NCBI GenBank assembly: GCA_019239775.1 | Contig: JAFAZN010000363.1 | Coordinates: 197 to 64,196, forward strand | Origin: Chloroflexota bacterium | GTDB lineage: Bacteria; Chloroflexota; UBA6077; CF-72 | DNA length: 64,000 bases | Direction: 5' to 3' | Part shown: positions 19,376-22,349 of the stretch, piece by piece | How positions within the stretch are numbered: the first letter of the stretch is position 1 | How the letters are laid out: every line of letters starts with the position of its first letter | The notes under the pieces: model-generated | The model's database searches: none | What the model saw: only the letters and a program-made list of their open reading frames with translations | Told to the model about the DNA's origin: nothing | Translations under genes and position numbers: made by a program

Positions 19376-20443
19376 GTGGAACACACGACGCGTGCCCAGT
19401 TCCCACAGGCGCGACCGCGTCGACTGCGCCGTACCGAAAACCTTCGACGCATGGTGCGCGAGACGCATCTCCGCACGGACGGGTTCATCTACCCGGTCTT
19501 TGTCGTGCCTGGCACCGACGTGCACGAAGAGATCACCTCGATGCCTGGCGTGTACCACCAGTCAATCGACCGTGTAGTCGAGGATGCGCGCGAGGTTGCT
19601 GACCTCGGAATACCGGCGATGCTGCTGTTCGGCCTGCCGCCGTTCAAGGACGCCGAGGCTTCCCAGGCGATGGCTGTCGATGGCATCGTGCAGCAGGCTT
19701 TACGCGCCATCAAGCGTGCCGCACCGTCGCTGGTACTGATTGCCGATACCTGTTTGTGCGAGTACACGAGCCATGGTCACTGCGGCGTGCTCGGCGCGGC
19801 GGGTCAAGAGGGCTTCATCGACAACGATCTCTCGCTCGAGCTGATGAGCCGCACGGCGGTGTCGCAGGCCGAAGCTGGCGCCGATATCGTGGCGCCCTCC
19901 GACATGCTGGATGGTCGAGTTGGCGCCATTCGCGCCGCGCTGGATGCGCGCGGCCTGCACGACACCCTCATCATGTCGTACGCGGCCAAGTACGCCAGCG
20001 CGTTTTACGGTCCGTTCCGCGACGCAGCCGACTCAGCGCCGCAGTTTGGCGATCGCCGCGGCTATCAGATGGATCCGCCCAACGGCCGCGAGGCCGTGCG
20101 CGAGGTTGGCTACGACCTGGCCGAAGGTGCAGACATCGTGATGGTCAAACCAGCACTGCCATACCTCGACGTGGTGCACGCCGTGAAAACGGCGTACCCG
20201 GATGTGCCGCTGGCGGCCTACAACGTTAGCGGCGAGTACTCGATGCTCAAGGCAGCCGTTGCGAATGGCTGGCTGGATGAGCGGCGCGCCGTGATGGAAG
20301 CGCTTACCGGAATTGTGCGCGCTGGCGCGGACATGATCATCACGTATTACGCCAAGGACGTGGCCCGCTGGCTGCGCGACGACGACACGTCACACACCGC
20401 CACATCGAACGGCGCCTTTCGCGTCGGGCCATCTCACGCGTGA
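19376..20443 (+). CDS. hemB: Porphobilinogen synthase
   Basis: [33 protein letters not shown]. Confidence 0.97.
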
Positions 20444-21780
20444 GCGTGCCGCGTGAGGGACTCGCCGCACGAACACAGAGGTCCGAGGCGCTCTTCGCCG
20501 AGGCGCAAAAGCACCTGCCGGGTGGCGTCGACTCCCCGGTAAGGGCTTTCCGCGGCGTGGGCGGCACGCCGCGCTTCATCGCCCGCGCCAAAGGCTCAGC
20601 GGTCTGGGATGAAGACGGCAATCATTATGTCGACTACCTGGCTTCGTGGGGCCCGCTGATCGCGGGCCATGCCCACCCGGGCGTGGTGGCCGCCATTCAG
20701 GAGGCCGCCACCCGCGGCACAAGCTATGGCGCGCCCACCCAGGCCGAGGTCGAGCTGGCGCAACTGGTCAAGCAAGCATTTCCGAGCATCGAGCTCGTAC
20801 GGTTCGTCAGCTCGGGCACCGAAGCGACGATGACCGCACTGCGCCTGGCGCGCGCGTTTACCGGGCGCGACCTCATCCTCAAGTTTGACGGGGGCTATCA
20901 CGGCCATGCCGATGGCCTGCTGGTACAGGCTGGCTCAGGGCCGCTGACATTGGGTGCGCCTGATTCGCCGGGTGTGCCCGCGGTGGCCGCGGCTCAAACG
21001 CTGTCGGTGCCCTACAACGACGTGGTTGCGGCGCGCGATGCATTGGCCGCGCACCCGCGACAAGTCGCGGCGGTGATCGTCGAGCCGGTGGCGGGCAACA
21101 TGGGGGTGATCCCGCCTGCGCCCGGGTTCCTCGAACACCTGCGCGAGCTCACGCGGGCGGATGGCGCGCTGTTGATCTTCGACGAGGTCATCACCGGCTT
21201 CCGCGTCGCGCTGGGCGGCGCGCAAGAACGTTTTCGCATCCGGCCCGATCTGACGTGCCTCGGCAAAATCGTTGGTGGCGGCTTGCCCGTAGGTGCCTAC
21301 GGCGGACGCGCCGACATCATGCAGCAGATCTCGCCGCTCGGGCCCGTGTACCAGGCAGGCACTCTCTCAGGCAACCCGCTCGCCATGGCAGCAGGCCTTG
21401 CCACACTACGACTGCTGACAGAGCCTGGCGTCTACGACCATCTCGAACGGCTCAGCGCTCGCCTGACGGATGGACTCGGCAACGCCGCGCTCAGTGCTGG
21501 AGTCGCATACACCACCAATCGTGTGGGCTCGATGTTCACGGGCTTCTTCTGCCCCGAACCTGTCACTGACTACGCTTCGGCCAAAGCGGCCGATACCCGA
21601 AGATATGCGCGCTTCTTCCACGCGATGCTGGAGCACGGCGTCTACCTGGCGCCCTCGCAGTTCGAAGCGGGGTTCGTGTCGCTGGCGCACACCGAGGCCG
21701 ATATCGATGCCACACTCGCCGCTGCCGCTGAGGCCTTTGGCGAAGTTACGAGTCGCGAGTCCCGCGTCGCGGGCGAGTAG
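20440..21780 (+). CDS. hemL: Glutamate-1-semialdehyde 2,1-aminomutase
   Basis: [47 protein letters not shown]. Confidence 0.97.
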
Positions 21781-21851
21781 CTTCCGTCGTGCTGCAAAGA
21801 AAAGTTCGCCACCGTTCGACGGAGTCCGGTTAAACTCGTGACTCGAGAAAC

Positions 21852-22349
21852 GTGACTACAGAAGCCCCTGTAACGGTCTACACGACCCCCACTTGACCCT
21901 GGTGCTCGCGAGCGAAGGAGTTCCTTCGCAAAGAGGGCGTTCCGTTCGAGGTACGCGATGTGTCGGTCGACGCCGATGCGGCGCGCGATATGGTGCAGCG
22001 CACTCGCCAGATGGGCGTGCCGGTCATTGCCGATGAGCAGGAAGCCATCGTTGGCTTCGACATGCCAAGGCTACAGCGCATGGCCGCGCGGCATCGACGC
22101 GGCGGTGGTCTTGGGCTGAAAGTCACCGATTTCAAGGACGGGCCTGGCGCGTATGTTGGCGGCGTGCGCGAGGACTCGCCTGGTGCGCGCGCGGGCGTCG
22201 AAGTTGGCGACGTGATCCTGGAGCTTTCAGGTCGAGCCGTCTCGGGCGTCGCGGATCTGGAGCAGATCGCGGCAAGACGGCCGCCAGGCCAGCCCACGAG
22301 CATGACCGTCCAGCGCAACGGCGAGACGCGCACGCTGATTCTGCGCTAG
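21852..22349 (+). CDS. Glutaredoxin-like selenoprotein (UxxC) fused to a PDZ domain
   Basis: GTG 21852 gives MTTEAPVTVYTTPT-U(TGA 21894-21896)-PWCSRAKEFL..., in frame with track ORF 21960..22349 (GVPVI...IVGFD, then PDZ GLGL...SPGARAG..GDVI). Confidence 0.85.
21897..21937 (+). promoter_or_regulatory. Bacterial SECIS-like hairpin
   Basis: GCGAAGG-AGTT-CCTTCGC (21912-21929); loop starts 22 nt after the UGA and has G at loop position 2; possible lower CCCT/AGGG stem. Confidence 0.7.

Follow-up and report, generated by a model that had tools for sequence, protein, structure and literature searches.

A conserved glutaredoxin-PDZ gene with an in-frame TGA, concealed by gene calling, is a probable selenoprotein gene of Chloroflexota

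The window analysed here, a 64,000-nucleotide stretch of contig JAFAZN010000363.1 from a Chloroflexota bacterium, very probably holds a genuine selenocysteine (Sec)-decoded gene that is conserved among relatives and concealed by gene calling. As predicted from the sequence, its product would be a glutaredoxin-like domain with the active site U-P-W-C, joined by a short basic linker to a PDZ domain. The reading is carried by the structure of the gene, by one alignment column that holds either TGA or a Cys codon, by the Sec machinery of the genome and by a conserved hairpin, all of them directly observed. The features are as follows (A1 is the 23-row protein alignment of orthologs described below).

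21852..22349, + strand: coding sequence of the predicted Grx-PDZ selenoprotein (GTG start, Sec codon 15, TAG stop), from the frame and the end-to-end ortholog alignment A1
21894..21896, + strand: UGA probably read as Sec, the U in first position of U-P-W-C; the same column has TGA in 15 loci and TGC/TGT in 9
21912..21929, + strand: SECIS-like hairpin within the codons for A-K-E-F-L-R, conserved in Sec forms, with CTT kept in 14 of 15 of them
21870..22082, + strand: glutaredoxin-like domain, residues 7-77 (PF00462; TIGR02196; PDB 7c10)
22104..22337, + strand: PDZ domain, HtrA/DegP PDZ1-like, residues 85-162 (PF13180; DegP/DegQ PDZ1 profile)
21960..22349, + strand: truncated 129-aa ORF of standard gene calling (P0007), from the ORF listing and a database call
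21831..21836, + strand: TAAACT, a candidate -10 motif only (letters present; promoter scan silent there)

The frame runs over 165 codons from GTG 21852 to TAG 22347-22349 and contains a single in-frame TGA, at codon 15 (21894-21896); beyond it the gene has no additional stops or frameshifts. From the preceding in-frame stop to the TGA, GTG 21852 is the sole ATG, GTG or TTG. When the TGA is translated as U, a 165-residue product results, with the N-terminus VTTEAPVTVYTTPTUPWCSRAKEF. The first-pass annotation had proposed that read-through restores a glutaredoxin N-terminus with U at the first Cys of CxxC, and the frame, Pfam and the orthologs all bear this out. Its -10 element at 21831 fares less well: the letters TAAACT are there, but the sigma-70 scan reports no promoter at 21831-21836.

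Pfam recognizes both domains in the read-through product, glutaredoxin (PF00462) at residues 7-60 (7.1e-17, 61.8 bits against a gathering score of 22.9) and PDZ_2 (PF13180) at residues 85-162 (4.9e-13). Every NCBIfam model stays below its cut-off for this protein. The closest for the redox domain is the YruB-type glutaredoxin TIGR02196 (residues 7-77, 77.5 bits, cut-off 88.55), and NrdH TIGR02194 reaches 39.4 bits (cut-off 85.75), so that the domain is nearer to the YruB type than the earlier label 'NrdH/Grx-like' suggests. The Uxx-star model NF041212 scores 57.2 bits (cut-off 66), its match stopping at model position 65 of 70, after which the PDZ domain follows; the Trx7/PDZ model NF041199 matches the PDZ part only (residues 99-162; 29.8 bits, cut-off 300). 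In profile searches the nearest solved structures are glutaredoxin 7c10 for the redox domain (8e-25) and PDZ1 of DegP/DegQ for the PDZ domain (about 3e-24). Ahead of the first PDZ strand the carboxylate-loop motif L-G-L is conserved in A1, which also shows an invariant G88. An identity as an HtrA/DegP S1-C serine protease was rejected: the match is confined to the PDZ part (model positions 254-323 of 434), and the read-through protein contains no protease Pfam family. The protein is probably cytoplasmic, since its N-terminus is not signal peptide-like.

Orthologs were sought in six frames in 41 genomes, the window's own and 40 relatives. Two-domain matches were found in the window's genome, in all eight same-genus genomes and in another 15 from the same order or class. 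The match contains exactly one TGA in 14 genomes (15 loci, one genome having two copies) and none in nine. Twenty-six loci were extracted and translated: 15 Sec forms (the window's own included), nine Cys forms, and L048 (cut by a contig end in genome G038) and L049 (glutaredoxin domain only), neither of which enters any count; the partial L037 was included as a Cys form and is absent from A1 and from the tree. Homologs with Cys or TGA at the site, which the first-pass annotation had suggested looking for, fall into one column: TGA in 15 loci or TGC/TGT in nine, always at one position of the motif T-x-T-[U/C]-P-[W/Y]-C. Identity to the window's protein ranges from 82% down to 38% in A1, where the U/C column (with U written as C) and the resolving Cys do not vary. 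Because the orthologs are kin, these counts are not independent and carry no statistical test.

Several further loci resemble the gene. Genome G008 has two Grx-PDZ copies (C82:2307-2786 and C333:2606-3097), each with one in-frame TGA, of which the C82 copy is not among the 15 extracted Sec forms. L049 (G028:C93) is a stand-alone, 82-residue glutaredoxin-like gene with TGA at T-P-T-U-P-W-C and no PDZ domain, and glutaredoxin-only matches with one TGA also occur in G025, G034 and G020. Among the 80 matches listed for named public genomes, in a scan with a Cys pattern (T-C-P) that is blind to Sec forms, 73 are restricted to the glutaredoxin part and derive from many phyla; the seven two-domain loci have Chloroflexota-type titles (Sphaerobacteraceae, Anaerolineales/Anaerolineae, Dehalococcoidia, Chloroflexota).

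Downstream of the TGA lies a perfect 7-bp stem formed by GCGAAGG (21912-21918) and CCUUCGC (21923-21929), with the loop AGUU (21919-21922), where the first-pass annotation had placed it. The hairpin has a ΔG of -10.4 kcal/mol, starts 15 nt after the UGA and occupies bases 19-36 counted from its U. Criteria of the bSECISearch type for bacterial SECIS elements look for a stem-loop shortly 3' of the UGA with a G early in the apical loop; here the stem spans +19 to +36 and the loop reads AGUU. Rfam reports no family, SECIS or otherwise, in the window at the gathering threshold, or in 21800-22050 at E up to 10.

The hairpin exceeds chance by codon choice and by conservation, though not by folding energy alone. 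Compared with dinucleotide shuffles the folding energy is not unusual (z -0.05 over 81 nt, z -0.65 over 60 nt). Local folding energies also overlap between the classes, at -6.3 to -15.4 for Sec forms and -1.3 to -13.8 for Cys forms, the lower Cys value being that of L044, which folds to -13.8 kcal/mol at the same place. When the window's codons were recoded synonymously, a hairpin as good arose in 18 of 1000 cases, and in seven other Sec forms in 8-34 of 1000. Recoding was not significant for L030 (253/1000), L038 (284/1000), L031 (905/1000) and L032 (944/1000), the last two having mismatched stems that perfect-stem scoring cannot score; these figures exclude L042-L047. The stem depends on the rare Leu codon CTT: its share of Leu codons is 9% in the window's long genes, yet 14 of 15 Sec forms use it, versus two of nine Cys forms.

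All 15 Sec forms have the hairpin or a substitute for it, but only two of the nine Cys forms (L027, L034) do; GU is present in every loop of the Sec forms. Seven of the 15 share the identical 18 nt. The stem of L038 has 6 bp; L031 and L032 carry one internal mismatch, with Lys changed to Met. L039 and L046 have GCGAAAG/CUUUCGC with a loop of five, AAG having become AAA, paired with a change of CGC to UCG; L045 has the same arrangement with a G-U pair, and L043 has CGAAAGA/UCUUUCG with the loop GUU. In L030 the original hairpin is lost and CCUCC-GGUC-GGAGG stands ten bases further downstream. These compensatory changes in the stem were read by eye and not scored. RNAalifold, given the 15 Sec-form stretches, returned a different 4-pair helix and did not recover the register-shifted pairs, because the 3' arm is displaced by one base in four sequences and one further sequence has a different hairpin. 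A covariance model realigned the sequences without the shift and also caught antisense copies of the palindromic hairpin.

The draft genome to which the window belongs comprises 507 contigs and 7.2 Mb, with 91% completeness and 5% contamination. A search for selA, selB, selC and selD, named in the first-pass annotation as one of its checks, found all of them: selA (551 bits), selB (344 bits) and selD (375 bits) score over their cut-offs, and a tRNA-Sec is found at 66.7 bits, with the anticodon tca according to ARAGORN. selB and selA are neighbours on the minus strand (G000:C101, 39886-43091). There is also a weaker second match to the tRNA-Sec model, just above the cut-off (C83:3293-3375, 47.4 bits). 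selD has an in-frame TGA of its own, in H-G-A-G-U-A-C-K (G000:C231, locus L012 1531-1533), followed about 28 nt downstream by a GC-rich hairpin with the loop GUG. By its sequence, selD is the predicted second selenoprotein gene of this genome, and its in-frame TGA implies that the organism would decode UGA as Sec elsewhere too.

Sec and Cys interchange easily in evolution, and the switches in our tree fit this behaviour. The maximum-likelihood tree of A1 requires four Sec/Cys changes, at least three of them on well-supported branches. One Cys form, L027, branches amid Sec forms from its own genus and is 79% identical to the window's protein; it has TGC at the site with the hairpin intact, and looks like a recent Sec-to-Cys replacement.

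We infer the inserted residue from the sequence, and the easy interchange of Sec and Cys forms among orthologs would also suit a UGA that is decoded but not, or not only, as Sec: as Trp or Cys by a near-cognate tRNA, or as Cys via the Sec pathway when selenium is scarce. Such decoding is improbable here, since the complete Sec machinery, the Sec-type selD and the conserved GU-loop hairpin at SECIS distance point to SelB-dependent decoding, and since TGA serves as an ordinary stop in the orthologs L035 and L038. We therefore keep to Sec as the residue at codon 15. SelB and the charged Sec-tRNA(Sec) would be recruited by the hairpin at 21912-21929, and Sec would be inserted at that codon.

The segment ahead of the TGA is informative on whether the codon is passed at all. 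In the orthologs the eight codons before it keep V-T-V-Y-T-T-P-T while their third positions vary, which argues that this upstream part is under protein-level selection in the same frame; the start codon lies 10-20 codons upstream of the U/C codon in every ortholog. Gene callers nevertheless truncate the gene, as the first-pass annotation had foreseen. The window's own call (P0007) is the 129-aa ORF from GTG 21960, and among the best 120 database matches 106 are of 119-148 aa and 14 are full-length (165-169 aa). All seven full-length entries examined have Cys at the site, and the five short entries examined start at an internal GTG or ATG downstream of the Sec position (V19, V31, V35, M37, M47). 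Many short calls bear the JGI name 'S1-C subfamily serine protease', a misnomer that reflects the PDZ domain only.

Were the TGA a true stop, the locus would yield only a truncated PDZ protein from GTG 21960, perhaps with a 14-residue upstream peptide. This is what the standard ORF listing gives (21960-22349), and most database entries are truncated calls of this kind. Yet such a product would start partway through the glutaredoxin fold, the residues before the TGA and from the TGA to 21960 are conserved as protein across the 23 aligned orthologs, the Cys forms are continuous full-length proteins, and the truncated starts vary between calls as artefacts would. We consider a true stop very unlikely. 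A nonsense mutation, a pseudogene or a sequencing or assembly error at 21894-21896 has practically no chance: one base does separate TGA from TGC/TGT and the genome is a contaminated 507-contig draft, but orthologs as distant as 42% protein identity share the TGA, which occupies this codon in 15 loci from 14 genomes, and the gene is otherwise free of stops and frameshifts. Nor do contigs from four public runs list any other letter at the codon; the source sample may itself be the best holder, so the independent support from these runs is weak. A genome lacking Sec machinery, with homologs all carrying TGC/TGT, was what the first-pass annotation had held against its own proposal; the machinery and the 15 TGA loci contradict it.

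In the Logan contigs of the four runs, many short related contigs pile on 21870-21940, the active-site and hairpin segment only, with a summed depth of up to 51.8 versus about 10 alongside, and diverge on either side of it. Apparently a near-identical 21870-21940 stretch is common to several related strains or paralogs, and assemblies break there. Among the public runs listed as containing the Grx-PDZ sequence there is no RNA run.

With Sec at codon 15, the protein is best pictured as a cytoplasmic, YruB-type glutaredoxin-like thiol-disulfide oxidoreductase whose attacking residue would be the Sec of U-P-W-C. Most likely, the PDZ domain would hold a client protein by an exposed C-terminal or hydrophobic peptide while the enzyme reduces disulfides or mixed disulfides of that client. 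The resolving Cys18 would then form a selenenylsulfide, to be recycled by an upstream reductase. For this step thioredoxin reductase appears more likely than glutathione, because no glutathione synthetase (gshB) was found in the window's 91% complete genome, an absence that argues against strict dependence on glutathione; a thioredoxin reductase is present (357.8 bits). The PDZ-guided mechanism, taken on its own, is a tentative proposal, possible but rather less than even in our estimation. Its homology to PDZ1 of DegP/DegQ, including the L-G-L motif, is all that speaks for a PDZ domain that would direct the redox centre to the C-termini of proteins.

The surroundings of the gene are as follows; the three ORFs of the window were named by reading their sequences.

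20440-21780: glutamate-1-semialdehyde aminotransferase-like ORF, 446 aa
22643-23182: MarR-like ORF, 179 aa
23179-25605: HlyD-like ORF, 808 aa, with a very long Ala/Gln-rich middle
L040 1-1482; L042 973-2370; L044 1546-3492: loci that adjoin an S41 protease gene

The order hemL, Grx-PDZ gene, marR and hlyD-like gene is common to the genus only. Neighbours vary in farther relatives, with no conserved partner, and none supports the proposed function. Stress-type neighbours occur in some orthologs, namely Hsp20/BON/Usp in L032 and ClpB in L038. An S41 C-terminal processing protease with a PDZ domain of its own adjoins the C-P-Y-C Cys forms of one family (f6), L040, L042 and L044.

A bolder picture is that of a client-guided protein-repair reductase, a redox counterpart of HtrA quality control, with its own principle of substrate selection and forming a distinct selenoprotein family. 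Proteins that are misfolded or damaged by oxidation would be captured by the DegP-like PDZ domain through their exposed hydrophobic C-termini and presented to a fast disulfide reductase that relies on Sec and needs no glutathione. The stress and proteostasis neighbours in L032, L038, L040, L042 and L044 are hints in this direction; we speculate along these lines but regard the picture as unlikely.

The prediction is not surprising in kind, as UxxC glutaredoxins and one PDZ-fused thioredoxin-fold selenoprotein already figure in the tables of reviews. Glutaredoxin (PF00462, UxxC) is tabulated among the experimentally supported bacterial selenoproteins (PMC9312934, PMC13188914), in agreement with the statement of the first-pass annotation that UxxC glutaredoxin-like selenoproteins exist, and a 'PDZ domain-containing / Trx7-PDZ' protein with CxxU among the predicted ones (PMC9312934, PMC13188914). 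The tables of these two articles, supplements apart, list no glutaredoxin-PDZ fusion (PMC9312934, PMC13188914). A search of the full-text literature, subscription journals and supplements apart, found no paper on a glutaredoxin-PDZ fusion or on such a selenoprotein. What the gene adds to the bacterial selenoproteome is a well-supported but systematically mis-annotated predicted selenoprotein architecture. Selenoproteome censuses and annotation pipelines would benefit from a dedicated model, because the public calls are mostly 5'-truncated and bear a protease name that does not apply to them. The window's protein and L027, a natural Sec/Cys pair at high identity, offer a clean system for Sec-to-Cys replacement and for SECIS decay, and the PDZ fusion is a testable idea for how a small oxidoreductase may choose its clients.

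Among known systems, the DegP/DegQ/HtrA proteins share the PDZ domain, which aligns with PDZ1 and has the conserved carboxylate-binding loop of the G-L-G type; the window's protein differs in having no protease domain. The single-domain Cys proteins of the GlrX_YruB type (TIGR02196, 7c10), of about 75-85 residues, share the V-P-V cis-Pro region and the G-F-D motif. UXX-star proteins carry an extra Sec three residues from the C-terminus. Their models (NF041212, NF041114) describe a related glutaredoxin-like fold, matched at the 57.2 bits given above, whereas the window's chain continues into the PDZ domain instead of ending in a C-terminal U-x-x-stop. The Trx7/PDZ family NF041199 is likewise a thioredoxin-fold selenoprotein fused to PDZ, but has a Thioredoxin_7 domain, CxxU instead of UxxC and a model of 390 positions. 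Closest in kind are the Sec-containing glutaredoxins, for example that of Clostridium/Alkaliphilus oremlandii, which are alike in fold, in the N-terminal UxxC Sec, in having Cys homologs and in the 3' SECIS hairpin. In contrast to these, the window's protein adds a C-terminal PDZ domain, has the active site U-P-W-C and comes from a genome in which no glutathione synthetase was found, and Grx-PDZ proteins have so far appeared, in the Cys-pattern scan, in Chloroflexota-type genomes. Grx-PDZ is a new architecture among the known UxxC glutaredoxin selenoproteins.
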